Both the position numbers and the translations under genes were made by a program. Below are positions 36,704 to 48,562 of a stretch of DNA of 64,000 bases, one piece after another. Position 1 is the stretch's first letter, and each line of letters begins with the position of its first letter. Below the pieces are notes generated by a model. The model saw only the letters and a program-made list of their open reading frames with translations. It was not told the DNA's origin and made no database searches. The stretch comes from an uncultured Bacilli bacterium (GTDB lineage: Bacteria > Bacillota_I > Bacilli_A > RFN20 > CAG-449), in contig CANQTY010000001.1 of assembly GCA_947626895.1 (NCBI GenBank), forward strand, positions 2,477 to 66,476. Direction: 5' to 3'.

Positions 36704-37498
36704 TCATTCATCTTTTTTAATTTTTAGGCTAATTTCTTTTTCTTGTTCATCTTTTGCAAAATCCACTATAACAGTAAGGGGTTCATCATCCTTTACTTCA
36801 TTATTTTGTAATTCCATTTTCTTTTGTCTTCTTGAAGAAATACGATTGACTAATAAGCCTTTTAAAGCATAACGATCGATAGGAAAACTTACTAAAGGAA
36901 CAATAAGGGCAGCAAGTAAAGCTTCAAAAGAAGATTGTGTTAATAAAATTAAACCGACAAATAGCCAATATGAAGCATAATTAGCATCCCCAGCAATATG
37001 TTCCATATCACTATGATAAAATAGATATAACGCTCCAAAAACTAAAAGACTATGGACAATGGTCATCACAAAAGAGGTGATAATAGATAAAGTCTTTTCT
37101 TTTTTAGAGTTATGAATATGCATTCTTAAAATTTCAAATACCCATCCTGATAAAAAGCCAAAAAGCGCTCGTGGAAGAATGGAAATTAAAGGATTTTGAA
37201 AAAATGGATCTAAAATGCTTGTCGGAGATTGATAAGCTTTAATCATCGACATGACACCAAAAAATATTCCATAAACTAAACCTTTATTTTTACCAAATAA
37301 ATACGCTCCAATTAAAACAGGAATATGAATTAATGTCGCTGAAACTGGAGGAATAGCAATAAAGCCAATCGGAGTAAAAGTCATTAATATAATTAAAGCT
37401 AGAAACATTGCATCTAAGCATATTTCTTGAATTTTCATACGTTTATTATTCATGGTGTGCATCTCCTTGATTCTTTTTATAAATTTCATAAAGACCAT
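36704..37498 (-). CDS. ECF transporter S component (likely pantothenate-specific, PanT-like) with charged C-terminal tail
   Basis: ECF S-component-like multi-TM pattern; immediately downstream of, and overlapping, coaX; start codon ambiguous (several Met). Confidence 0.45.
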   Translation of the reverse strand: MVFMKFIKRIKEMHTMNNKRMKIQEICLDAMFLALIILMTFTPIGFIAIPPVSATLIHIPVLIGAYLFGKNKGLVYGIFFGVMSMIKAYQSPTSILDPFFQNPLISILPRALFGFLSGWVFEILRMHIHNSKKEKTLSIITSFVMTIVHSLLVFGALYLFYHSDMEHIAGDANYASYWLFVGLILLTQSSFEALLAALIVPLVSFPIDRYALKGLLVNRISSRRQKKMELQNNEVKDDEPLTVIVDFAKDEQEKEISLKIKKDE

Positions 37499-38225
37499 CT
37501 AAAATTAATTGATCATCATATTGAAATTCATTTAATTCTTTTTGAATTAAAATCGCATTACCCCCTGTTAAAATAGGCTTTAAAGAATAACCTAAAGATG
37601 CCTCTATCATGCGCTTTAATTCACGAATTTGAGCAATTGTTCCATAGATTGCTCCAGAATTTAAAGAATCTTTAGAATTTTTTCCGACGATATTTTTCGG
37701 TGCTACATATTCTATTTCCATGAGTTGTGCAGTTTCTTCAACTAAAGCTTGATAAGAAACTTTAATTCCTGGTGCAATAATGCAACCATCAAAGGCACCA
37801 TTTTGATCCACGACTAAATATTTTGTCGCTGTTCCTAAATCAACAATTAATAAAGGATATCCATATTTATGGATAGCTCCAACTGCATCAGAAACTAAAT
37901 CAGCGCCAAGTTCAAGAGGATGATCAATATGGATTGGAAGTCCAGATTTGATTTTTTGTCCAACTTGCAAACATGGCACATGAATTACCTTTTCTGCAGC
38001 AGAAACAATCGTACCACTTAGTGATGGGATGACACTAGATAAAATTGCCCCAGTAAAGGCATTTACATCTAAATGTTCTTGTAATAAGAAAAATTGTAAT
38101 ATTTCGCGATATCCATCGCTTGATCTTTTTTTATCGCTATACGTTCTATATGTAGCGATTAACTGATCTTCATGGTATACCCCGACATAAAGATTGGTGT
38201 TACCAAGATCTAAAGTTAATATCAT
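37446..38225 (-). CDS. coaX: type III pantothenate kinase
   Basis: MILTLDLGNTNLYVGVY N-terminus; ASKHA-fold motifs (IVDLGTATK; GGNA). Confidence 0.88.
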   Translation of the reverse strand: MILTLDLGNTNLYVGVYHEDQLIATYRTYSDKKRSSDGYREILQFFLLQEHLDVNAFTGAILSSVIPSLSGTIVSAAEKVIHVPCLQVGQKIKSGLPIHIDHPLELGADLVSDAVGAIHKYGYPLLIVDLGTATKYLVVDQNGAFDGCIIAPGIKVSYQALVEETAQLMEIEYVAPKNIVGKNSKDSLNSGAIYGTIAQIRELKRMIEASLGYSLKPILTGGNAILIQKELNEFQYDDQLILDGLYEIYKKNQGDAHHE

Positions 38226-38298
38226 ATAAACCTCCTGCTACAGTCCATAAGGTACCGTGCCATATCTATTATAAAAATGATGTAACTTTTTTCAACGA

Positions 38299-40266
38299 TT
38301 AAATGATTTCTTTAATTCTTTTAATGACTTCTTCTTTTGTAAAGTTAAAGTATTTCACTAAATCTTTCATTGGAGCAGATAAGCCAAAAGTATCTAAACT
38401 CATGACATGGGGTGCGATTTTATGCCAACCAAAAGATGAAAGCATTTCAATTACCATACGCTTTTCATAACTATTTCCTAAGGTTTGAGAAATATAAGTA
38501 GGATCTTGTTTAAAGAAACGTTCTACACAAGGCATCGAAACTACACGAATATCAATTCCAATATTTCTTAGTTCTTTTTGAGCATCTATAGCTAAAGCGA
38601 CCTCTGAACCTGTGGCAATTAAAGTAAGATCTGGTTCTTCTCCAATTTCTTTTGAAATGATATATCCACCTTTAGTAATATCGCTAGAATCACTTCCTCC
38701 AATTAAAGGAAGATTTTGTCTAGATAAGATGATACACACTGGAAATTCATTTTGTTTAAAGGCATTTTGATAAGACATCGCCACCTCTCTAGCATCACAA
38801 GGACGATAGACTTCAACATTTGGAATAGAACGCAACATTGCAAGTTGCTCAATTGGTTGATGTGTTGCGCCATCTTCACCAAGAGCAATAGAGTCATGAG
38901 AGAATAAGTAAACAGCTGGTAAATGAGACATTGCTGCCATACGTATTGCAGGTTTTAGATAATCTGAAAAGACTAGGAAACAACCGACAAAACTTCTTAA
39001 TCCACCATGTAAAAGCATTCCATTTTGAATCGCAGCCATAGCAAATTCACGAATTCCAAAGTTAATATTTCTTCCATTTCGATGTTCAAATGAAAAATCT
39101 TCATATCCTTTCACTTTTGTTTTTACAGAAGAGGCAACATCTGCACTACCTCCAATTAATGTTGGAATTGAATTATATAAAAGTTCTAATATCTTTCCTG
39201 AAGTTATTCTTGTAGCTTCACTAAATCCATCAGGATAAGAAGGAATCGAATTAAACACGAAACTTGCACAATCATTGTTCATCATCACTTCAAATTTTGT
39301 GGCTAAAACACTATTATTTCGCTTGAAGATGTTCAATTGATTTTCCCATTCTTTATAGGCAGCTTCGCCTCGAGAAATAAAACTATTTTTAAAATCATCA
39401 TAAACTTTTGGAGCTACATAGAAGGCATTTTCTTTATATCCATAGCTTGTTTTGGCTCGTAAACCATCCTCTTCCCCTAAAGGAGCACCATGAACTTTAT
39501 TTGTACCTTCATTGATACTTCCTTGACCAATTGTTGTATGCACAATAATTAATGTTGGTTTCACTTTCGAAGTTTTAGCAATTAAAATGGCTTTATCAAT
39601 TTCTTCTACATTATTACCATCTTTTACTTCATAAACATTCCAACCACTAGCTTGGAATCTCTTTTTAGGATCATCAATACTAGATAAAGATAAATCACCA
39701 TCTAACGTTACATGATTTGCATCGTAAAATACGATGAGACGATTGAGCTTTTGGGCTCCCGCAAAAGAGATAGCTTCTTGAGAAATACCTTCTTCTAAAC
39801 AACCATCCCCGACTAAGCAATAAGTATAATGATCCACTAAATGATATTCACTTGGATATTGATTACGTAAAAATACTTCAGCAAGAGCTAATCCAACAGC
39901 TTGTCCAATTCCTTGACCAAGTGGACCAGATGTAGCATCTACACCTTTAGTTAAACCATATTCAGGATGACCAGGAGTAATCGATTTTAAAGAACGAAAT
40001 TTCTTTAAATCTTCCATACGAATTTCATAACCTGCAAGATGTAAAGTGACATATAATAAACTTGATGCATGTCCCGCGGATAAAACAAAGCGATCACGAT
40101 TAATCCAATATGGATGATTAGGATTTGCAACTAAATGTCTTGTATATAATGTATAAAGAATTGGAGCACTTCCAATTGCCATCCCCGGATGACCTGAATT
40201 GGCTTTATTTGTCATATCAATGACTAATGAACGCATTGTAGCAATAGATTTTTCATATAATTTCAT
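38299..40266 (-). CDS. tkt: transketolase
   Basis: ANSGHPGMAIGSAPI TPP-binding N-terminus; 655 aa. Confidence 0.92.
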   Translation of the reverse strand: MKLYEKSIATMRSLVIDMTNKANSGHPGMAIGSAPILYTLYTRHLVANPNHPYWINRDRFVLSAGHASSLLYVTLHLAGYEIRMEDLKKFRSLKSITPGHPEYGLTKGVDATSGPLGQGIGQAVGLALAEVFLRNQYPSEYHLVDHYTYCLVGDGCLEEGISQEAISFAGAQKLNRLIVFYDANHVTLDGDLSLSSIDDPKKRFQASGWNVYEVKDGNNVEEIDKAILIAKTSKVKPTLIIVHTTIGQGSINEGTNKVHGAPLGEEDGLRAKTSYGYKENAFYVAPKVYDDFKNSFISRGEAAYKEWENQLNIFKRNNSVLATKFEVMMNNDCASFVFNSIPSYPDGFSEATRITSGKILELLYNSIPTLIGGSADVASSVKTKVKGYEDFSFEHRNGRNINFGIREFAMAAIQNGMLLHGGLRSFVGCFLVFSDYLKPAIRMAAMSHLPAVYLFSHDSIALGEDGATHQPIEQLAMLRSIPNVEVYRPCDAREVAMSYQNAFKQNEFPVCIILSRQNLPLIGGSDSSDITKGGYIISKEIGEEPDLTLIATGSEVALAIDAQKELRNIGIDIRVVSMPCVERFFKQDPTYISQTLGNSYEKRMVIEMLSSFGWHKIAPHVMSLDTFGLSAPMKDLVKYFNFTKEEVIKRIKEII

Positions 40267-40289
40267 AATTGAAAGTCTCCTTATTTATT

Positions 40290-40460
40290 CAAAATAAAAT
40301 CCGGAAAGACTTGAATTCCCTGTCTCACAGGGTGGGCCACTTTTCTCTGCTTTAGGATTCCGAACTTAGATAACTAAAGATAGTTATTCGGCCTTCAACA
40401 CCACAGAGATGAAAAAGCGTCCCTTTATCATCATGTAGGAATCGCATTTGCTCTCCGGAC
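40290..40460 (-). ncRNA. candidate structured 5' leader or ncRNA upstream of tkt (class not identified)
   Basis: unusually GC-rich for an intergenic region; closing TCCGGA/TCCGGA stem; internal hairpins CCCTGT-GAGA-CAGGG (GNRA loop) and CCGAATAACTAT...AGTTAT..TTCGG. Confidence 0.25.
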
Positions 40461-40596
40461 ATTGTTATTTTAGCACAAAATCGATTAATCATGCAATATA
40501 CATATAATTATGTAATAATTCATAATTAATAAGTAAAAGCGAAATTCAAAACAAATTATTTAATGAATTTTGTCATATTTTTAATTACTTTTCATG

Positions 40597-40624
40597 TTGA
40601 CTTTATGACAAAAAGCCATATAAT
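40597..40624 (+). promoter_or_regulatory. consensus sigma-70 promoter (TTGACT-16-TATAAT) for the XRE-ImmA-PIN operon, with flanking TGTCAT/ATGACA inverted repeat
   Basis: TTGACT at 40597-40602; TATAAT at 40619-40624; ATG at 40656 preceded by AAAAGGAGAG RBS. Confidence 0.7.
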
Positions 40625-40655
40625 ATTTTTAGATGAATAAAAAAGGAGAGCAAAA

Positions 40656-41009
40656 ATGTCTTACAAAAATAGTGAAATTGGTAAGAAAATTAAAAAATTA
40701 AGAGAAGATTCTCATCTTACTCAACAGCAATTAGCAGAATACTTAAATGTAGATCAAAGTCTCGTTTCTAAATTTGAAAAAAGCGAGCGTACTATTAGTT
40801 CCGATATATTAACCGAAATATCAATTTTATTTTGCTGTTCATTACATGATTTATTATCAAATGAAGATATTATGCCGAAATTTAATATTGCATTTAGACA
40901 AAGTGAAATTTCGCTTGAAGATTTAAAAGAACTTTCAATTATTCATAAAATTGCGCTAAATCAAGTTAAAATTGATGAATTAAGCAAAGGAGTTAAAAAC
41001 CATGATTGA
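40656..41009 (+). CDS. XRE-family HTH transcriptional regulator
   Basis: LTQQQLAEYLNVDQSLVSKFEKSERTIS is a canonical Cro/C1-type HTH. Confidence 0.85.
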   Translation: MSYKNSEIGKKIKKLREDSHLTQQQLAEYLNVDQSLVSKFEKSERTISSDILTEISILFCCSLHDLLSNEDIMPKFNIAFRQSEISLEDLKELSIIHKIALNQVKIDELSKGVKNHD

Positions 41010-41745
41010 TAAGTTAAAATTAAGTATTTCGACTTTACAAACACGTCATCAATTTGGAGAAGATGACATATCTCCAATTGATATTTTTAGTTTAGTTAAA
41101 GCGATTAAAACATTAACATTAATCATATTTCCCTTTAAGAAAAGCATTAGTGGTTTATGTATTCATAATCCATCATCTTCAATTATTGCAATCAATTCTA
41201 GAATGTCCCTAGGAAGACAGAGATTTACATTAGCTCATGAATTATATCATCTTCTTTATGATCAAGATAAAGAGATAGTTTGTCGTAAGGATTTCTCTTA
41301 TGATAACGAAAACGAACATAGAGCGGATTTGTTTGCCTCTTATTTATTAATGCCTCCATTAGCCTTGCAAACAATGATTCAAAAATATAAAAAAACATCT
41401 AAATATCGCCTTACTTTACATGATATTATTGAAATTGAGCAAACCTATGGAATATCTCATCAAGCTCTTTTAACACGTTTAAAAGAGGAAAAAGAAATAA
41501 ATAGCGATCAATTTGATGCAATGCAAAATGGAGTCATATCTCTAGCAAATCGTATGGGATTTGATTGTTCATTGTATAAGCCATCGGAAGATAAAATACA
41601 AGTATATGGTTATTATATTTCTCAAGTGGATTTTCTATATCAAAATGATATTATCTCCAAGGGAAAATATGAAGAACTATTATTAGATGCATTTCGCGAC
41701 GATATAGTGTATGGTAATGACGAAGGAGGGGAATTTCTTGATTAA
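41002..41745 (+). CDS. ImmA/IrrE-family metallopeptidase (COG2856)
   Basis: HEXXH LAHELYHLL; size and gene order (after XRE) typical of ImmA/IrrE; 8-nt overlap with the XRE gene. Confidence 0.75.
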   Translation: MIDKLKLSISTLQTRHQFGEDDISPIDIFSLVKAIKTLTLIIFPFKKSISGLCIHNPSSSIIAINSRMSLGRQRFTLAHELYHLLYDQDKEIVCRKDFSYDNENEHRADLFASYLLMPPLALQTMIQKYKKTSKYRLTLHDIIEIEQTYGISHQALLTRLKEEKEINSDQFDAMQNGVISLANRMGFDCSLYKPSEDKIQVYGYYISQVDFLYQNDIISKGKYEELLLDAFRDDIVYGNDEGGEFLD

Positions 41746-42268
41746 TTGTCTTTTTTTTGATACAGATTGCTTAAGTTCTTTTTTATGGACAAAAAGCGAA
41801 GAATTATTACCGAAATTGTATGTTGAAAAGATTGTTATTCCCCGACCAGTATATATTGAATTAAGTAGACCAGTAATCTCTCATCTTAAAAAACGATTGG
41901 ATATCTTAATTCAAGAACATCACCTGAAAATACAAGATATTAACATTAATTCAAAAGAATTTAACACTTATTACCAAATGACAGAGGAACCTTTAGCAGG
42001 AAATAAAGTCATCGGTAAAGGAGAAGCAAGTGCACTTGCTTTAGCCATACATAATCATGGTATTGTGGCTAGCAATAATTTAAGAGATATTTTACCATAT
42101 GTTAATCAGTATTCGTTAAAATATATGACAACTGGAGATATTCTTGTTGATGCTTATGGACATAATTTGATTAGCGAAGAAGACGGAAATGTTCTGTGGG
42201 CTAATATGCTCCAAAAAAGAAGATATTTAGGAGCGGATTCATTTTCTTCATATTTAAAAGGCAAATAG
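41736..42268 (+). CDS. PIN-domain protein (predicted RNase)
   Basis: N-terminal FFDTDCL (PIN D1); later acidic positions (GEASALALA, TGD); probable TTG start at about 41736 preceded by GGAGGGG; overlaps the immA end. Confidence 0.5.
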
Positions 42269-42309
42269 TTAACCCCATTTGCCATTTTTGATTGATTTTT
42301 TAAGTTTAA

Positions 42310-43539
42310 TTAACGTTGAATTTTTAAATGTCTTGGTAATCCATCCACCCATAATGGAGCAATTTCGGCTTGAATTAAAGGACGAATATAATGGACTAAT
42401 TCTTCTTTCACAAAGGTACCATCATCACTAATCCATTCTAACGGTACTTTCTTTTCTACGTTTGCAATTAGATGTACATCTTGAGGTTCAGTGATACACA
42501 TATACGGATCTTCACTTACTCTTTTTAAAGTAATCACATGACCAGTTAAACCATTTAATGCAGCTTTTACCGCGGCTCCACCTGTATTGAAAGCTTCGGT
42601 GATATCAATTCTTGATGTCATATGTGCCGCACATCTTTGTAATGATGAAAGTTCAATTGCTCTTGTTTTAACTCCATAGGCAGTAGCGACTCTAGAAGCT
42701 AAATAACGCGCAGTTCCTGATAATTGTTTATGTCCAAAGGAGTCAACGTATTCCACGTGATCTGCTAATTCACAAACATAACGTCCATCTTTTACTTTAA
42801 CGCCTTCTGAAACAGCGATAACTAAAGAACGATTTTCTTTTAAAAGTTCCCCTGTTTTCTTTAGAAATAAATCAATGTTAAATGGAATTTCAGGTAAGAA
42901 AATCATATCGACACCTGAGCAATCTTCACCACGCGCTAATGCGGAAGCTGCAGTAAGCCAACCAGCGTTTCTTCCCATTACTTCAACAATGGTGACCACA
43001 GGATAATCGTAAACTAAACCATCACAAATAATTTCCTTCATCGTCGCAGCAATATATTTTGCAGCACTTCCATATCCAGGCGTATGATCTGTCATGGCTA
43101 AGTCGTTATCAATTGTTTTAGGCACACCCATAAAACGAATAGGACTTTTAATAGAATTACCATAATCGGTAAGTTTTTTAATCGTATCCATCGAGTCATT
43201 TCCTCCAATATAGAAGAATGCATCGATTTTATATTCATCTAAAATTTCAAAGATTTTTTTATACGTTTCTTCATTTCCTTCAATGTCTGGTAATTTATAT
43301 CGACAAGAACCTAAGAAAGATGAAGGGGTTCTTTTTAATAAATCCATATCAAGATCTGTTTTGATTTGTTCTCTTAAATCGACGATATCTTTATCTAATA
43401 AACCTTTGATACCATGTACCATGCCATAGATTTTATCACATTTTAAATCTTTCGCGGTTTTAAAGACACCTAATAATGAGGAATTAATTACAGAGGTAGG
43501 TCCTCCAGATTGTCCAACGATAATATTTTTCATAAACAC
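42310..43539 (-). CDS. pfp: 6-phosphofructokinase, probably pyrophosphate-dependent subtype
   Basis: GQSGGPTSVIN in place of the GGDGS of ATP-PFKs; PFK-family motifs (MGR; PKTIDND); 409 aa. Confidence 0.7.
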   Translation of the reverse strand: MFMKNIIVGQSGGPTSVINSSLLGVFKTAKDLKCDKIYGMVHGIKGLLDKDIVDLREQIKTDLDMDLLKRTPSSFLGSCRYKLPDIEGNEETYKKIFEILDEYKIDAFFYIGGNDSMDTIKKLTDYGNSIKSPIRFMGVPKTIDNDLAMTDHTPGYGSAAKYIAATMKEIICDGLVYDYPVVTIVEVMGRNAGWLTAASALARGEDCSGVDMIFLPEIPFNIDLFLKKTGELLKENRSLVIAVSEGVKVKDGRYVCELADHVEYVDSFGHKQLSGTARYLASRVATAYGVKTRAIELSSLQRCAAHMTSRIDITEAFNTGGAAVKAALNGLTGHVITLKRVSEDPYMCITEPQDVHLIANVEKKVPLEWISDDGTFVKEELVHYIRPLIQAEIAPLWVDGLPRHLKIQR

Positions 43540-43737
43540 TTATCTCCTTTAAATATAATTATAAAAGATTTTATTTTAATTGTAAGGGCTTCGGCTTTTT
43601 CTTGTGCTACAGTTGACTTTTTTTGAGGTGAAAAGTCGCAATTATTTTTTTATTATGCTATTAAAAAATCCCTATTTTTAAGGGATTTTGAGTATTAAAA
43701 TTCATAAATTAAAATTTAAGCACAAATTTTAAATATT

Positions 43738-44436
43738 TTATTTCTTTATAAAGGATAAATGTACACCTCCATCCTTTAAAGGATGAGCAAAATTAAATTT
43801 AAAATCTTGATTCATAACAAAATTAGATACTCCATCAAAGGATGCTTGATTTAAAGGATTACCATCAATATAAGGAGCAATCACTAAAGAAATTTCATCG
43901 ACTAAATGTTCTTTTAAAAAGCCTCCATTTAATATGGCTCCACCTGTTACTACTAAATAATTGATATCTAGTTTTCCTATTTTATTTAAGGTTTCTAGAA
44001 GAGAACCGCTAATCATATAAGAAATATTTTTATTTTCTAAATATGCAAGATATAATGGGTTAACCTTGCTAGAAACAACTTCTACGATATGATAGGAAAT
44101 GTTATTATAAATAAACTCGTTATTTTTCCAGGAACAGCGACCATTTCGATCAAATACAAATAAATAGTGATCTTTTTTTAAAATATGATCTTTTAAAGGT
44201 AAAGGAGATAAATCTTTTATATCATCAAGACTAATCTCTCCAGCATGATATTTTTGTACAGTAACTCTACCTAAAGCCATTGATGACCCAAGTTCATTAA
44301 TTTGGTCATCATAATAATTTCCTGCATAAATAGAATTTTTTTGTTCCATATATTCACCATCGATTTTTCCATCAATCGAAGTCATCATATGGATAATGAT
44401 ATAAGGCTTTTTCATATTAAATATCTCTTTTTTCAA
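43738..44436 (-). CDS. RibD C-terminal domain / dihydrofolate reductase-family reductase
   Basis: YIIIHMMTSIDGKIDGEY is a typical RibD_C / DHFR-like N-terminus; 232 aa. Confidence 0.6.
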   Translation of the reverse strand: MKKEIFNMKKPYIIIHMMTSIDGKIDGEYMEQKNSIYAGNYYDDQINELGSSMALGRVTVQKYHAGEISLDDIKDLSPLPLKDHILKKDHYLFVFDRNGRCSWKNNEFIYNNISYHIVEVVSSKVNPLYLAYLENKNISYMISGSLLETLNKIGKLDINYLVVTGGAILNGGFLKEHLVDEISLVIAPYIDGNPLNQASFDGVSNFVMNQDFKFNFAHPLKDGGVHLSFIKK

Positions 44437-45517
44437 GTTTTACTTTTTCTAGACGTGTAGAAGGGATATCTTTTCTTCCTTCTTTAGCTTCTTTTTTACC
44501 ATTGAGTTCAACTAAATCACCTGTAAAACCAACATTAATTTTTAATAAGTTGGTACCCACGCCATAAGTATCAACTGGAACATGATGCTTTTCAAAATCT
44601 GCTATTTTTTTAGCATCAAAACCACTAGAAACGATAATTTTTACATATTGAAATCCTTCTTCATCAAGAGCTTTTCTTAAAGCAAATATAAGTTCTTTAC
44701 AAACTCCATGAGGATCAAATCCAGAAGTATCTTTATCATCAAAATAATGATCAATTAACGATTTTGAAGTATCAACACGAACAGCATTTAATTTTTCTTT
44801 AAGATGTCGAGCAATTAATAAAGTATCTTCTACGACATTATTATGATAATCAATTAAAGCCGTTACTTTTTCATTTGGAAAAGTTTTTAAATAATAATCC
44901 GCGGCTTTTATAATATCTCCCCCACAGATTTGAATAAGGGCGTGAGGCATTGTACCCATACCTTTTCCTCCCCACCAATAGCCCATAGCATCTGTAGAAT
45001 CTAGTTTTAAACCTGCAACATATGCGCTATATCCATCACCGATTTGAGTATTGTATTCATCCTGACGATCTGCCATATTGATGACTGCTTTTCCGTTTGT
45101 CACTTTTAAAATGCGATAAGTATTGGTAGCAACAGAACTTCTTCTAGCTAAAATTCCATCAATCATGCTTTCTAAAAATCCAAAATCTTCATAATGTCCT
45201 TTAATTTTTAAAACAGGTTCTCCATTGGAAATAATATCACCATCATTTAAAGCTTCAATTTCTAAATCTTCTGGATGATTTGCAAAGCATTGAATTAAAG
45301 CAATACATTCATCAATTCCACATAGCATCACATCATCTTCTCTTTGGAAAAATTGCATAGTGACTTTTTGATTTGGAATATTTTCCTCGACAATCTTACG
45401 GGTTTTTAAAAAGTAATTTGCAGTAAAAAATCCATCCTTTAATCTTGGATCAAATTGAAATGTCTTATTTGTTAATCTTTTAATTAATCCTTTTTCTTTT
45501 AATTCTACTTCTAGCAT
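44417..45517 (-). CDS. nicotinate phosphoribosyltransferase-family protein (short form)
   Basis: N-terminal FTANYFLKT resembles the NAPRTase family; 366 aa; overlaps the downstream gene by 20 nt. Confidence 0.5.
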   Translation of the reverse strand: MLEVELKEKGLIKRLTNKTFQFDPRLKDGFFTANYFLKTRKIVEENIPNQKVTMQFFQREDDVMLCGIDECIALIQCFANHPEDLEIEALNDGDIISNGEPVLKIKGHYEDFGFLESMIDGILARRSSVATNTYRILKVTNGKAVINMADRQDEYNTQIGDGYSAYVAGLKLDSTDAMGYWWGGKGMGTMPHALIQICGGDIIKAADYYLKTFPNEKVTALIDYHNNVVEDTLLIARHLKEKLNAVRVDTSKSLIDHYFDDKDTSGFDPHGVCKELIFALRKALDEEGFQYVKIIVSSGFDAKKIADFEKHHVPVDTYGVGTNLLKINVGFTGDLVELNGKKEAKEGRKDIPSTRLEKVKLEKRDI

Positions 45518-45526
45518 AATAATCTC

Positions 45527-46582
45527 CTATTTTTCATATCGAAAATGAGCAATATCCTCATTTGACAAAGATTCTAATAAATATTTTAACCCCATTACCG
45601 CATTTTCAAAATCTTTTACATCTAATACACTTGATGGAGTATGAATTGCTCGTGCACATAGACAATAAGTAAGCGTTGGTATTCCTTCACAAGCTTGATG
45701 AACTTCTCCAGCATCCGTACCACCTTTAGAAATATAATATTGATAAGGAATTTGATGTTCTTCTAAAACATTTTTTTGGAATTGAATTAAATCTTTTCTG
45801 GCAATCATTGCTCGATCAAACACTCTTAATAATACACCATGATTTAAACTACCTTCTTCAGTTTCTGTCGCTGGAGAACAATCGATAACAATAACAAAAT
45901 CTGGTTTAATAAAATTCACCGCAGGTTTAGCACCTCTTAAACCAACTTCTTCTTGACAAGAACCACCTAAATATAAATCAAATGGCAATTCTTTTTTTAA
46001 CAAAGGAAGCATATTAATAGCCATAGCTAAACCCATTCGATCATCTAAAGCTTTAGAAAGAACTCTTTTCCCCGAGGCAATTAAAGAAAACTTTCCTTCT
46101 AAAATAAGAGGATCACCGATAGTGATTTCTTTTTTAGCTTCCTCTTTAGAAATAAAACCAAAATCAAAGCACATATCTTCAATTGAAGTTTTATCGTTTC
46201 CTTTTCCTGTTAATAAATGAGGAGGTAAAGCTAAAGCCGTTCCATAAAGAAATTCTCCATTTTGTTTCTTTAAAATTGCTCTAGAAGAAAGAATCGTTTC
46301 TGAATTAAAACCACCTAATGGGGTCACTTTTACAGTACCATTTTCTAAAATTTTGGTGACGACAAATCCCACTTCATCCATATGAGAAAGAAGTAAAACT
46401 TTTTTAGGATTACTTAGTAAAGACTTTTTTAATCCAAATACATTTCCAAAAGGATCTTGTAAAGTCGTTAATCCTAATTCTTCATATTTTTGAAGAAGAT
46501 AATTTCTCACTTCCTCTTCATGCCCAGAAGGGCCGAATAGTTGTGTTAATTCTTTTAATACACTTAAATCCATTTTAATCAT
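45527..46582 (-). CDS. M42-family aminopeptidase (FrvX/PepA/CelM-like)
   Basis: LFGPSGHEEEVRNYL N-terminus; 351 aa; metal-ligand His/Asp pattern. Confidence 0.75.
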   Translation of the reverse strand: MIKMDLSVLKELTQLFGPSGHEEEVRNYLLQKYEELGLTTLQDPFGNVFGLKKSLLSNPKKVLLLSHMDEVGFVVTKILENGTVKVTPLGGFNSETILSSRAILKKQNGEFLYGTALALPPHLLTGKGNDKTSIEDMCFDFGFISKEEAKKEITIGDPLILEGKFSLIASGKRVLSKALDDRMGLAMAINMLPLLKKELPFDLYLGGSCQEEVGLRGAKPAVNFIKPDFVIVIDCSPATETEEGSLNHGVLLRVFDRAMIARKDLIQFQKNVLEEHQIPYQYYISKGGTDAGEVHQACEGIPTLTYCLCARAIHTPSSVLDVKDFENAVMGLKYLLESLSNEDIAHFRYEK

Positions 46583-47195
46583 CCTTTCTAGCTATAAGTC
46601 TATAAATCTTTTTTCCTTCTGCACGGAATTTTGTTTCATATTCAGTAGCAATATCATCATCTTTTAACATATAATCTTCATCGATTGTTTCTATGATAAA
46701 TTTTGAGTTTTGAAAGTACTTTATACTATCGATAAATAATCCTTCATTATCCGTCTTAAAATAGATTTTACCACCATTTTTTAATACCGTTTCATACTTT
46801 TCTAAAAAGGTGGGATAAGTTAGTCTTCTTTTATGTTGACGTTTTTTAGGCCAGGGATCAGAAAAATTTAAATAGATAGCTTCAAAAAATGAAGGTTTAA
46901 AATCTTCAAATAAATTATTCACATCACTCAAAATAAAATGTAAATTTTTAGGCGCAGAATCTAAATACGTTTTTAAAGCAATCGCTACAACTAAACGATC
47001 TACTTCAATTCCAACATATTCATTGTTTGGATCTTTTAAAGCTTTTTGATATAAAAAACCACCTTTTCCAAACCCGATTTCTAAAAAATATTTTTTATCA
47101 TCCTTAAAAAAGGAAGGAAGATCTTCCTTATGAAGTAATAAATCATTTTCTTCCTCAAGAAGAGGATCCATCCATTTTCTTTTTCTTAATCGCAT
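46575..47195 (-). CDS. trmB: tRNA (guanine46-N7)-methyltransferase
   Basis: EIGFGKGGFL SAM-binding motif; 206 aa. Confidence 0.85.
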   Translation of the reverse strand: MRLRKRKWMDPLLEEENDLLLHKEDLPSFFKDDKKYFLEIGFGKGGFLYQKALKDPNNEYVGIEVDRLVVAIALKTYLDSAPKNLHFILSDVNNLFEDFKPSFFEAIYLNFSDPWPKKRQHKRRLTYPTFLEKYETVLKNGGKIYFKTDNEGLFIDSIKYFQNSKFIIETIDEDYMLKDDDIATEYETKFRAEGKKIYRLIARKDD

Positions 47196-48562
47196 AATCT
47201 TCCTAAAGCATCGATTGCATGTGCATAGATTGCCATCGAATCAAATAAATCCTTTAAATGAATGGTTTCATTCGAGTTATGAATGCGGTCATCTCTATTT
47301 GGAAAATGAGAGCCAAAAGCAATGGTATTTTTACTTTCTTTTGCATAGGTTCCTCCTCCAATGGTCATAATTGGAGTAAGTAAATCCCCTGTTTCATCAC
47401 GATATACTTTTTCTAAAGTTCTTACCATTGCTCCATTTGGGTCCACTAATAAAGGATCACTAATGGATAATAACGTATGTTTTCCTAAATTCATCGTATT
47501 TAACTTATCAATAACCTTTTTAGGATTTACATTTTCAGGATAACGGAAATTTACTACATAACTTAATACTCCATTTTCATATTCCATGAGCCCTACATTA
47601 AAAGTCGTATGATGTAAAGCTTCACTTTCTTTATAAAGACCTAAAGTAGAGCCATCTCCATCTAAATAGCTAGTAGCAATATTGCTTAAACGAACATCAG
47701 TAAAATAAAAAGATAAGAAACGTAATAAACAAAGACCTGCATTCACTCCAAGATTTGGTAATGATCCATGCGCAGCTTTTCCAAATACTTCTAGATGATA
47801 AAAATCTTCATCTAAATTTTCTAAAGTATATTGGCAATCTGTCGCACCAAAATAAGCTTTACAAGCTTTTTTAAAGTTTCCTTTGGCCTCAAGTTCACAA
47901 GTAACATGATCCATTACACTATTCGAGGCAGTTCCTCCACGAAGAGATAATAAAAAGGGTAAATCAAGTTTTTGTTCAACTTTATAATTTGCAATTCCTT
48001 TTTCCCCATAGATTAAAGGAAAATCACCATCTGGAGTAAACCCATATTTTGGATAAGGTTTTTTAAGTTTTTTAAAGTAATATTCTAAACATTCTGAACC
48101 AGATTCTTCATTTCCCCCGACGACGAAACGAACCTGATATCCTTCAATTCTTCCTGCATCTTTTAAAGCACATAGCGCATGAAATGTTGCCATTGCAGGA
48201 CCTTTATCATCCGATGTTCCTCTTCCATACATTACATCATCTTCAATTTCTCCTGAAAAAGGAGGATACTTCCATTCTCCTGAGACAGGAACAACATCAC
48301 AATGTGCATATATTCCGATAATATCTCCCTCTCCATAGCTAATTTCTGTACAATATCCATCACATCGATCAACATTAAAGCCATGAGCTTCTGCTAAAAG
48401 AGCAATATATTCTAAAGCCCTAGCGACATCTTTACCAAAAGGCATTTCTTTAGTTTTAGAATCTTCTTCATAAACCGATGGAATTGCTATCCATTTTTTT
48501 AAATCTTCAACAACCTCTTTTTCATGAGATTTTACTAATTTTTTATAATCAAACATACTCAT
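47186..48562 (-). CDS. pepV: M20-family dipeptidase (PepV-like)
   Basis: 458 aa; M20 metal-binding motifs (HCDVV; GRGTSDDKG; GGNEESG). Confidence 0.8.
   Translation of the reverse strand: MSMFDYKKLVKSHEKEVVEDLKKWIAIPSVYEEDSKTKEMPFGKDVARALEYIALLAEAHGFNVDRCDGYCTEISYGEGDIIGIYAHCDVVPVSGEWKYPPFSGEIEDDVMYGRGTSDDKGPAMATFHALCALKDAGRIEGYQVRFVVGGNEESGSECLEYYFKKLKKPYPKYGFTPDGDFPLIYGEKGIANYKVEQKLDLPFLLSLRGGTASNSVMDHVTCELEAKGNFKKACKAYFGATDCQYTLENLDEDFYHLEVFGKAAHGSLPNLGVNAGLCLLRFLSFYFTDVRLSNIATSYLDGDGSTLGLYKESEALHHTTFNVGLMEYENGVLSYVVNFRYPENVNPKKVIDKLNTMNLGKHTLLSISDPLLVDPNGAMVRTLEKVYRDETGDLLTPIMTIGGGTYAKESKNTIAFGSHFPNRDDRIHNSNETIHLKDLFDSMAIYAHAIDALGRLCD

Follow-up and report, generated by a model that had tools for sequence, protein, structure and literature searches.

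XRE-family repressors that are removed by proteolysis, as in ImmA/ImmR, IrrE/DdrO and CapP/CapH, provide a general route by which bacteria and their mobile elements convert damage or infection into gene expression. The CapH/CapP switch, found in CBASS and other defence operons, pairs an XRE repressor of about 110 residues with an M78 peptidase, CapP (Lau et al. 2022, bioRxiv 10.1101/2022.04.27.489752; Calloji et al. 2026, bioRxiv 10.64898/2026.05.16.725639). In Deinococcus, DNA damage or oxidative stress leads the M78 peptidase IrrE (PprI) to cut the XRE repressor DdrO at L106|R107 (PMC7907104). The ImmR/ImmA pair of ICEBs1 and the XRE/ImmA pairs of phages follow the same logic of repressor and anti-repressor protease, and are located at mobile-element boundaries, where excision or lysis genes are under their control; ImmA is shorter and has a single domain.

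The addition of a PIN-domain gene to such a pair has itself been predicted since 2009. Makarova et al. 2009 (PMC2701414) proposed a three-component Xre-COG2856-PIN/RelE system, and Matelska et al. 2017 (PMC5499597) described PIN families (COG2405/DUF3368, DUF4411, PIN_14, PIN_20 and PIN_26) that are co-transcribed with HTH and DUF955 genes. These predicted Xre-COG2856(DUF955)-PIN systems combine the same co-transcribed domains as the locus examined here under the same logic, in which the protease removes the Xre repressor or antitoxin and so unleashes the PIN protein, although the published descriptions mostly concern Xre-peptidase fusions and analysed no operator, cleavage site or structure. 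The same architecture also appears in PADLOC-DB as PDC-M69, with an HTH protein of ~113 residues (A), a peptidase of ~272 (B) and a third protein of ~188 (C). Both PDC-M69 and the PADLOC entry PDC-S70 are computational candidates; we found no paper that mentions PDC-M69, and no experimental study of the Xre-COG2856-PIN combination in the literature. The original prediction for this stretch of DNA took a PIN gene behind an XRE/ImmA switch to be an undescribed arrangement, a claim that these two papers and PDC-M69 overturn.

Two further systems resemble parts of the arrangement. PD-lambda-2 (Vassallo et al. 2022, PMC9519451) is a validated anti-phage three-gene unit that combines an RNase-type, HigB-like toxin fold with an Xre-M78 protein. 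There the peptidase is fused to the Xre domain and the fusion is itself toxic, whereas our locus encodes separate proteins and a PIN domain; the gene order also differs, and the third gene is unrelated. VapBC systems share the PIN fold with our locus, with an acidic tetrad D/E/D(E)/E(D) at the same spacing. No VapB-type antitoxin (RHH, AbrB or Phd) is present here, however, its place upstream being taken by an XRE protein and a protease.

The locus lies in a 64-kb window, by which we mean the whole stretch of DNA that was analysed, and is a real, self-contained triad of a repressor, a protease predicted to cut that repressor and a PIN nuclease. The first gene, xre (40656-41009, plus strand), encodes a 117-residue HTH repressor (Pfam HTH_3, E=2.4e-11); a Shine-Dalgarno motif, AAGGAG, can be read from the sequence on the same strand at 40643-40648, 7 nt ahead of the ATG at 40656. 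It is followed by the gene for a 247-residue zinc peptidase of the M78 (ImmA/IrrE/CapP) type (41002-41745, plus strand; Pfam Peptidase_M78, E=2.2e-18) with the motif HELYH, and by that for a VapC-like PIN-domain nuclease (41738-42268, plus strand). This third open reading frame, ORF3, had been listed as 41711-42268, but its true start is likely to be the TTG at 41738, since a GGAGG Shine-Dalgarno sequence (41725-41729, plus strand, again read from the sequence) lies 8 nt before it and homologues begin at the same position. The protein read from this TTG begins (M)INCLFFDTDCL. All three genes occupy one strand behind a single promoter, and both junctions, xre/peptidase (41002-41009) and peptidase/PIN (41738-41745), are overlaps of exactly 8 nt. 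A terminator-like hairpin (42260-42283, assigned to neither strand), T-rich on both sides, marks the operon boundary between the convergent PIN and pfk genes; it was flagged on the minus strand, and on the plus strand its stem is followed by ATTTTTGATTGATTTTTT. The XRE, COG2856 peptidase and PIN assignments of the original prediction are all supported, with the elements where it had placed them, as is its suggestion of overlap or translational coupling. The third protein, put there at about 177 residues, is present, with 176 as its likely length.

The promoter, TTGACT-16-TATAAT (40597-40624), is as near-perfect as had been claimed, agreeing with the consensus at 11/12 positions, and is the top-scoring site of the region. 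Its -35 hexamer (TTGACT, 40597-40602, plus strand) recurs as the consensus TTgAct in the same register across 44 aligned loci, and its -10 hexamer (TATAAT, 40619-40624, plus strand) is kept as TATAAT or TATACT 8-9 nt after ATGACA in homologous loci. An inverted repeat had been proposed to flank the -35 and -10 hexamers. The repeat is present and conserved, but it is placed differently, with its left half-site (TTTTGTCATA, 40568-40577; core TGTCATA, 40571-40577) ~20 nt upstream of the -35 hexamer and its right half-site (TTATGACAAAA, 40603-40613; core TATGACA, 40604-40610) inside the -35/-10 spacer, neither half-site having a strand. TGTCATA-N26-TATGACA occurs only once in the 64-kb window, where 100 shuffles gave an expectation of 0.

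Upstream of xre, the pattern GTCAT-N27/28-ATGAC is found at rigid spacing in 56 of the 59 non-redundant homologous loci, against a background rate of 0.005 per 320 nt. This count comprises 53 automatic detections and three more (L016, L036 and L050) that were missed for the sole reason that the ORF start had been over-extended. In the three genuinely operator-less loci, residues of the recognition helix are changed (Q34L, S35N and R45Q/E). A blind scan of metagenomes with the operator pattern returned 80 loci, with xre-pep(-pin) directly adjoining in 38; where no PIN gene was present, the locus was a contig end, a decayed copy or a palindrome or hairpin arising by chance, and the same scan revealed no effector swap in which the operator and regulators preceded a different third gene. 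This pattern of conservation argues that the proposed operator is real. Its half-sites are 32-33 bp apart, which is unusual for a single XRE dimer. CapH, in contrast, binds one conserved element of 22 bp upstream of the -35 hexamer, whereas the operator of the triad is bipartite, with arms on both sides of the -35. Furthermore, CapH/CapP is normally divergent from the operon it regulates, which encodes a multi-gene effector system; in the triad, the switch is co-directional and co-transcribed with its effector, a single PIN protein.

The XRE protein matches the PADLOC capH model (E=8.7e-8, residues 5-94), and its N-terminus matches ICEBs1 ImmR (7t8i, E=3.9e-5); its recognition region is VDQSLVSKFEKSER. 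The C-terminal region looks like the cleavage-plus-oligomerisation module of CapH and DdrO. R81 is present in 61/61 sequences, always preceded by F or L at position 80 (Leu in 14/61), giving a motif [A/S][F/L]R at 79-81 from which an amphipathic helix follows. CapH is cleaved at F82|R83, and the window repressor has F-R at the same position, again ahead of an amphipathic helix; the L/F-R site is likewise similar to that of DdrO. F80|R81 is therefore a candidate scissile bond.

The nearest counterparts of the peptidase are CapP and IrrE. PADLOC's capP model matches the window protein with E=4.4e-24 and matches 45/45 family members, while PD-Lambda-2_B is matched only weakly (E=2.4e-5). H79, E80, H83 and E105 are invariant in 61/61 sequences. 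When profiles were aligned against CapP (7t5t), C94 fell on the cysteine-switch residue and E105 on the third zinc ligand, and the loop at 94-100 is predicted with low pLDDT, consistent with a mobile loop. A cysteine-switch loop is present in about a third of CapPs, and the window peptidase thus has a candidate for one. The switch is not universal in the family, as position 94 is Cys in 47/61 homologues and Ser in 13/61. Beyond the catalytic region, the protein contains a central HTH-like domain and then a distinct, short C-terminal domain of ~80 residues. This domain takes the place of the C-terminal GAF domain of CapP, with its ssDNA-binding groove, which is absent here. A conserved acidic EEGG sequence near the C-terminus was considered as a PIN-binding peptide and rejected for a simpler explanation: the GGAGG Shine-Dalgarno sequence of the PIN gene is encoded there, ahead of the overlapping PIN start codon.

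The third protein is annotated as hypothetical in most records, and can now be named a PIN-domain nuclease. Structural modelling confirms a PIN (Rossmann-like, three-layer) fold, for which the closest structures are VapC toxins. Sequence searches gave far less: the window protein had no match in NCBIfam or in Pfam at E<=1, and a profile search against PDB sequences returned noise only. Among 51 family members, 8 match PF01850 (best E=0.0024) and 1 matches PF11848 (E=0.046), while precomputed database annotation lists PF11848.14 (DUF3368) for most of the PIN homologues. PDC-S70 matches 49/51 members. All three window proteins match the PDC-M69 models (A, E=7e-8; B, 1.1e-24; C, 2.8e-3, the last matching 5/51 PIN family members), which points to remote similarity more than to membership. 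Compared with VapC, the PIN protein is ~40 residues longer and falls outside the Pfam PIN threshold.

The original prediction turned in part on whether ORF3 would retain the acidic residues of a PIN active site on alignment, and it does, although the alignment by which they are mapped is weak. No variation is seen at D8, E96 or D117, and conservation of E41 reaches at least 90%; a further acidic residue is D134. These residues lie at the end of beta1 (D8), in the helix after beta2 (E41), at a helix N-terminus (E96) and after beta4 (D117), and their register agrees with D7/E42/D98/E119 of Shigella VapC, including the 21-residue spacing of E96-D117, which equals that of D98-E119. The mapping is based on the fold, on secondary-structure position and on the one weak local match that hhalign gave between ORF3 and VapC (E=0.06), and not on a strong sequence alignment. 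We also considered an inactive PIN protein in which the invariant N113/N114 replace catalytic aspartates. This was ruled out, as Shigella VapC has the same T-N-N-x-R-E motif (VTNNTRE, against ASNNLRD here), of which the acidic residue is the last one (VapC E119, PIN D117).

The triad is found in the same order and at the same sizes in 83/85 fetched loci, in Firmicutes, Spirochaetes, Fusobacterium, Atribacterota, Caldisericota and Desulfovibrionaceae. An Xre-peptidase fusion is seen in only 1/85 loci (L040), the proteins being otherwise separate, and the PIN gene is almost never seen without both upstream genes: the three genes are obligately linked. When 185,579 species genomes were scanned in a pattern-limited way, 320 stretches matched (not de-duplicated by genome), and their distribution was sporadic. 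The cassette is thus patchy and multi-phylum, with unrelated, mostly housekeeping neighbours, and decayed copies exist. No flanking family occurs in more than 4 of 150 proteins upstream or 2 of 150 downstream, no integrase or phage enrichment was seen among these 300 neighbouring proteins (150 per side), and defence genes are only occasional neighbours. Co-transcribed domains and a sporadic, mobile distribution, which characterise the predicted Xre-COG2856-PIN systems, are both found here.

In the window, the triad is flanked by housekeeping genes on both sides (CoaX, transketolase, PFK, RibD_C and NAPRTase-like), which bears out the earlier remark that phage and integrase genes are lacking there; an exact PFK protein lookup yielded no record of a triad-less allele of the tkt-pfk interval. 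Consistent embedding in intact prophages, which the original prediction had named as grounds for abandoning its reading, was not observed. The triad had 0 matches in 50,697 phage records and occurs in 2 plasmid records and 2 of 2.9 M viral contigs, and its chromosomal neighbours are heterogeneous. On both viral contigs it has a late regulator on one side and HNH/terminase genes on the other, and is not at the lysogeny switch.

We are now able to propose a working model for the triad. From the genes it contains and their obligate linkage, the two folds, the motifs of the catalytic and cleavage sites, the conserved geometry of operator and promoter and the heterogeneous, non-phage context, we infer an autonomous, horizontally mobile three-gene operon in which cleavage of the autorepressor by the peptidase would fire the promoter and allow a PIN RNase to build up, an account that we hold to be somewhat better than an even bet. 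A dimer or larger oligomer of XRE would bind TGTCATA-N26-TATGACA and so repress the operon that encodes it, given that the right arm lies between the -35 and -10 hexamers of a near-consensus promoter and that XRE bound there would occlude RNA polymerase. The co-translated CapP/IrrE-like peptidase, with its cysteine-switch loop, would be latent by default. A stress or infection signal, by analogy single-stranded DNA or DNA damage, would then activate the peptidase to cut XRE between F80 and R81; the signal could be a different one, because the C-terminal sensor domain is unlike the GAF domain of CapP. The cut would leave the HTH domain without its C-terminal oligomerisation helix, repression would be lost, and the strong promoter would allow the VapC-like PIN nuclease to accumulate. 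This nuclease would cleave RNA, probably tRNA, rRNA or mRNA as VapC toxins do, and the outcome may be growth arrest, abortive infection or a stress response. As all three genes share one transcript, derepression would also make more repressor and more protease, and the circuit would reset once the signal stops. The earlier proposal of a protease-derepressed switch driving a PIN nuclease is supported as a general reading. Toxicity of the PIN protein is an assumption of this model.

The closest rival is a strict tripartite type II toxin-antitoxin system, as proposed in exactly this form by Makarova 2009 and Matelska 2017, in which XRE (through its C-terminal region) or the peptidase binds and neutralises the PIN protein, degradation of the antitoxin by the peptidase under stress frees pre-made toxin, and derepression is secondary. 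The antitoxin-first gene order and 8-nt overlaps are typical of toxin-antitoxin operons, the PIN gene hardly ever stands apart from its two partners, the nearest PIN structures are VapC toxins, and a patchy spread over several phyla among unrelated neighbours is what a mobile, addiction-type module would show. However, the XRE C-terminus, with its invariant [F/L]R and amphipathic helix, is CapH/DdrO-like and unlike a VapB-type tail that wraps the toxin, and the operator position makes simple promoter occlusion sufficient. The COG2856 proteins tested in pneumococcus were non-toxic alone (PMC4257102), which is neutral for the strict toxin-antitoxin reading. The two accounts overlap, and differ solely in whether the PIN protein is held in a protein complex; we regard such sequestration as possible but doubtful. 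The DdrO-like L/F-R site, together with the location of the window locus and most homologous loci among housekeeping genes and not in defence islands, would also suit a small-scale version of the Deinococcus IrrE/DdrO regulon, responding to DNA damage or stress, with the PIN protein as a non-toxic processing or repair nuclease induced on need. IrrE, however, has a GAF-like domain and governs a dispersed chromosomal repair regulon, whereas the triad is a mobile cassette with one operator and one effector. The single operator in the 64-kb window indicates no regulon beyond the cassette, while sporadic distribution and decayed copies point to an accessory mobile module, and we consider this explanation improbable.

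XRE and M78 pairs are, moreover, the classic switches of phages and ICEs, and the ImmR match of the XRE N-terminus, an integrase adjoining one homologous locus (L005) and the two viral contigs could together suggest that the locus is a leftover ImmR/ImmA immunity region of a decayed prophage or ICE, with the PIN gene as unrelated cargo. Against this, the triad and its conserved operator are found in 83/85 loci independently of mobile-element genes, and the triad does not lie in elements of the kind bounded by ImmR/ImmA, is missing from the phage genomes searched and does not occupy the lysogeny switch even on the viral contigs. The neighbour, phage, plasmid and viral-contig scans, together with the housekeeping flanks, largely refute this reading, which we judge to be highly unlikely.

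A more specific version of the derepression model is also more speculative, and we advance it only tentatively, as rather unlikely to hold in full. Here the triad would be a minimal alarm that resets itself. Its CapP-like protease would have traded the ssDNA-sensing GAF domain for a different C-terminal sensor and would react to something other than DNA damage, such as a phage protein, a nucleotide or some species of RNA. The repressor, by forming a tetramer or by wrapping the -35 region, would clamp the promoter at two half-sites separated by three helical turns. If true, this version would add a new input and a new operator geometry to the ImmA/IrrE/CapP family, and a single PIN protein as an abortive-infection RNase.

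More generally, the triad offers an unusually clean test case for proteolytic derepression: its three proteins are small and separate, it has one near-consensus promoter and a single effector, its one operator is sharply defined and shared by several phyla, and a scissile bond can be predicted. It bears on whether such a PIN protein serves as a toxin, a defence effector or a stress RNase, on the signal sensed by a CapP-type protease without a GAF domain, and on how a repressor uses half-sites 33 bp apart. Carriers of the triad include the cultivable and genetically tractable Streptococcus pneumoniae, S. mitis and Dielma.

The feature proposed from the sequence, an XRE regulator, an ImmA/IrrE-type metallopeptidase and a PIN nuclease encoded in tandem, is real, and its outline was read correctly. 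Two of its members are recognised by domain searches, namely an XRE-family HTH protein of 117 aa (xre, 40656-41009, plus strand; Pfam HTH_3, E=2.4e-11) and an M78 peptidase of 247 aa with the motif HELYH (41002-41745, plus strand; PF06114, E=2.2e-18), while the product of the third ORF (41711-42268, listed at 185 aa) has no match in Pfam or NCBIfam. The third gene most likely starts at a TTG codon at 41738, which stands 8 nt past a GGAGG (41725-41729) and corresponds to the residue at which homologues begin. The resulting protein of 176 aa opens with (M)INCLFFDTDCL, as its N-terminus had been described. The overlap is exactly 8 nt at each of the two gene junctions, bearing out the arrangement first reported and compatible with translational coupling. 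Since a promoter matching the consensus at 11 of 12 positions (TTGACT-16-TATAAT, 40597-40624) precedes the operon, and a hairpin that is T-rich on both sides (42260-42283) lies between the convergent PIN and phosphofructokinase genes, the cassette is equipped with both a promoter and a terminator of its own. It is flanked by minus-strand genes for transketolase (38299-40266) and phosphofructokinase (42310-43539), in a neighbourhood of housekeeping functions (a PALP enzyme, the S component of an ECF transporter, type III pantothenate kinase, RibD_C, a NAPRTase-like protein, an M42 peptidase and TrmB). Within a minus-strand gene run of ~12 kb (36704-48562) the cassette is the sole plus-strand block, and it is somewhat richer in AT (GC 0.23-0.31 versus 0.32-0.38 in its neighbours); odd strand and composition together fit a horizontally acquired insertion.

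The third protein has a PIN fold, as structural modelling shows. The positions of the PIN acidic tetrad hold conserved residues: D8 closes beta1, E41 lies in the helix that follows beta2, E96 stands at the N-terminal end of helix 94-106 (motif GxGEA) and D117 comes just past beta4 (motif ASNNLRD). D8, E96 and D117 are invariant in the family and E41 is conserved in at least 90% of members, so the protein retains the catalytic acidic residues on which the original prediction had made its PIN assignment depend. Shigella VapC, whose sequence was verified against 3tnd, has the tetrad D7/E42/D98/E119 and a last motif of VTNNTRE. Its D98-E119 spacing of 21 residues equals that between E96 and D117, and an hhalign comparison of the PIN family with VapC covers exactly the D98-E119 segment, weakly (E=0.06). 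By sequence, the family lies outside the current Pfam PIN models, with PF01850 matched by 8 of 51 members (best E=0.0024) and PF11848 by one of 51; precomputed database annotation assigns PF11848 to most members. The relatives form a compact family: they number 1005 in a large protein collection, nearly all of them 175-200 aa long, and profile searching against 1.84 billion cluster representatives yields 937 at E<=1e-3 (560 at E<=1e-10).

Of all the features of the locus, the candidate operator upstream of xre is the most informative. The inverted repeat, TGTCATA (40571-40577) and TATGACA (40604-40610) separated by 26 nt, had been noticed as TGTCAT/ATGACA around the promoter; it occurs once in 64 kb and not at all in 100 shuffles. 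It is also conserved across homologous loci, of which 80 were fetched from species-representative genomes, plus others. GTCAT-N27/28-ATGAC stands upstream of xre in 53 of 59 non-redundant loci (28 nt in 43, 27 nt in 10), against a background rate of 0.005 per 320 nt elsewhere in the same loci. Three of the six misses (L016, L036 and L050) are an artefact of over-extended ORF starts, the repeat being visible there. The true exceptions (L021, L058 and L078) coincide exactly with the loci in which the XRE recognition region departs from the norm (Q34L, S35N, R45Q/E), which is the co-variation expected if XRE reads the TGTCATA...TATGACA site. In the aligned consensus of homologous loci, ttTGTCATAaatttt-N-TTgActTTATGACAaaaat-N-TATAAT, the left arm lies ~20 nt upstream of the -35 and the right arm occupies the start of the -35/-10 spacer, placing the arm centres 32-33 bp, or about three helical turns, apart. 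As an independent check, a metagenome collection was scanned blind with the pattern TTGTCATA-N24/25-TTATGACAA. This returned 80 loci, in 38 of which xre-peptidase(-PIN) directly adjoins the match; the remaining 42 carry no HTH gene and resemble palindromes or hairpins arising by chance.

The peptidase resembles CapP and the repressor CapH, CBASS regulators in which ssDNA-activated cutting of CapH by CapP has been established biochemically (bioRxiv 10.1101/2022.04.27.489752; 10.64898/2026.05.16.725639). The PADLOC capH model matches the repressor (E=8.7e-8), whose motif [A/S][F/L]R is invariant at residues 79-81 (R81 in 61 of 61 sequences) and is followed by a conserved amphipathic segment (D-L...I-N-K-I-A-L-N). 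CapH is cleaved at F82|R83, preceding its C-terminal dimerisation helix (CapH/CapP literature), and DdrO between L106 and R107 (PMC7907104). F80|R81 of the XRE protein is close to both in position and chemistry, and its designation as the candidate scissile bond is thus a specific prediction, open to testing. A solved structure, PDB 9sf2_A (129 aa, 'Transcriptional regulator'), matches the XRE protein with E=8.2e-5.

When the peptidase family profile is aligned to the CapP sequence, C94 coincides with the residue of the cysteine switch and E105 with the third zinc ligand. Among 61 homologues H79, E80, H83 and E105 are invariant, and position 94 is Cys in 47 and Ser in 13. Model confidence is low for loop 94-100, as would be the behaviour of a mobile switch loop. 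The alignment with CapP ends past the peptidase and HTH-like domains: in CapP/IrrE a GAF domain makes half of the ssDNA groove, whereas the last ~80 residues of the window peptidase form a different, shorter unit. The C-terminal acidic tail ('G-x-E-E-G-G...D', 41716-41745) is conserved, and residues 235-247 are disordered in the model (pLDDT <50); because the stretch encoding the tail includes the GGAGG ribosome-binding site and the PIN start codon that overlaps it, the tail may be conserved for nucleotide rather than protein reasons. The family profile also matches PDB 9vzy_A (393 aa, 'HTH cro/C1-type domain-containing protein'; E=1.5e-4), which looks like an XRE-M78 fusion.

In 83 of 85 loci the order XRE-peptidase-PIN is kept and sizes and overlaps are unchanged, the exceptions being one contig end and one decayed copy; XRE and peptidase are fused in a single ORF in L040 (3905-5116). 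Hosts include Lachnospiraceae, Streptococcus mitis, S. pneumoniae, Dielma, Peptoniphilus, Catonella, Sphaerochaeta and Fusobacterium, as well as MAGs assigned to Atribacterota, Caldisericota and Desulfovibrionaceae, and the PIN homologues are 47-60% identical to the window protein. We surveyed the three nearest genes per side in 55-58 non-redundant loci, scanning 150 flanking proteins per side. These fell into 145 and 182 different Pfam families on the two sides, the commonest accounting for at most four of the 150, with no enrichment of integrase or phage families. Defence genes (a Wadjet system, a type IV restriction enzyme, AbiE, AriA/PtuA-like ATPases) are only occasional neighbours. Among the few such cases are four Lachnospiraceae/Clostridia loci (L001-L004, 5433-6599) with an AAA_15/AAA_21 ATPase immediately upstream, matching the PADLOC AriA, PD-T4-4_A, NsnB and PtuA models (E=1e-12 to 1e-20). 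Decay takes several forms: xre and peptidase split with the PIN gene intact (L096, 4724-6327), PIN truncated (L168, 3032-4227) or missing (L144, 1263-2363, variant or decayed), and an IS200/RAYT-like transposase fragment at the PIN position (L151, 1-1653). No effector swap, with the same regulators and a different third gene, was found among the triad and operator loci examined. This pattern is the signature of a horizontally moving autonomous accessory cassette, like toxin-antitoxin or small defence modules.

That the triad is instead a prophage remnant is much less likely. Searches with the PIN protein match none of 50,697 phage genomes, two of 72,556 plasmid records (one record being 2.6 Mb) and only two of 2.9 million viral contigs. 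Those two, IMG/VR contigs L088 (6908-8534) and L089 (6910-8537), are the only viral ones with the triad. It has a late-regulator-like gene on one side and HNH endonuclease/terminase genes on the other, away from any lysogeny switch, and VRR-NUC-like and SNF2-like genes lie upstream (functions judged from N-terminal sequences only). Such a position suggests that the triad is accessory cargo and not the lysogeny switch of the phage itself.

The analysis establishes which genes make up the triad, their folds and motifs, the geometry of the operator and the linkage, whereas DNA binding, cleavage, the trigger, the nuclease target and the physiological outcome are inferred. Protease-mediated derepression is the best-supported reading. 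XRE would occupy the bipartite operator and autorepress the strong promoter, and the peptidase would stay latent, in most members of the family through a cysteine switch. Some signal would then switch the peptidase on; cleavage of XRE at F80|R81 would part the HTH domain from the oligomerisation helix, derepressing the operon and raising the level of the PIN RNase. New XRE made off the same transcript would re-establish repression after the signal ends. The main rival is a strict tripartite toxin-antitoxin system, which differs from protease-mediated derepression solely in that PIN would additionally be bound by XRE or by the peptidase in a protein complex. A role for PIN as a repair nuclease is much less likely.

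The view that such an arrangement had not been described does not hold. Makarova et al. 2009 (PMC2701414) found COG2856-Xre proteins strongly linked to toxins of the PIN or RelE type and suggested that they form a system of three components. Matelska et al. 2017 (PMC5499597) put forward the same logic, reporting PIN-like families (COG2405/DUF3368, DUF4411, PIN_14, PIN_20, PIN_26) co-transcribed with HTH and DUF955 genes. The PADLOC-DB candidate PDC-M69 has an identical architecture, although the window proteins match its models only remotely. PD-lambda-2 is a validated anti-phage HigB/Xre-peptidase system (PMC9519451), and pneumococcal COG2856 proteins tested alone, without a PIN partner, were not toxic (PMC4257102). 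We found no experimental work on the XRE/M78/PIN triad in the literature searched, which covers few subscription-journal papers. This kind of triad was thus predicted earlier, and its existence would not surprise a specialist. New for the PIN-triad family are structural proof of the PIN domain, the CapP-like peptidase features with the missing GAF domain, the predicted scissile bond, and a rigid operator and promoter architecture spanning phyla. The cassette offers a compact, well-defined system in which to test a prediction standing since 2009.

No Rfam family reaches its gathering score across the entire 64-kb window. A full-length, sub-threshold match to 6S RNA (RF00013, model positions 1-187; 36.7 bits versus a gathering score of 46.4, E=1.2e-4) lies on the minus strand at 40294-40464, between the operon promoter and the tkt start. 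The folded RNA has a long closing stem (z-score -3.1 versus shuffles) and, since it directly precedes tkt on the tkt strand, could represent either a divergent 6S RNA gene or a structured leader.
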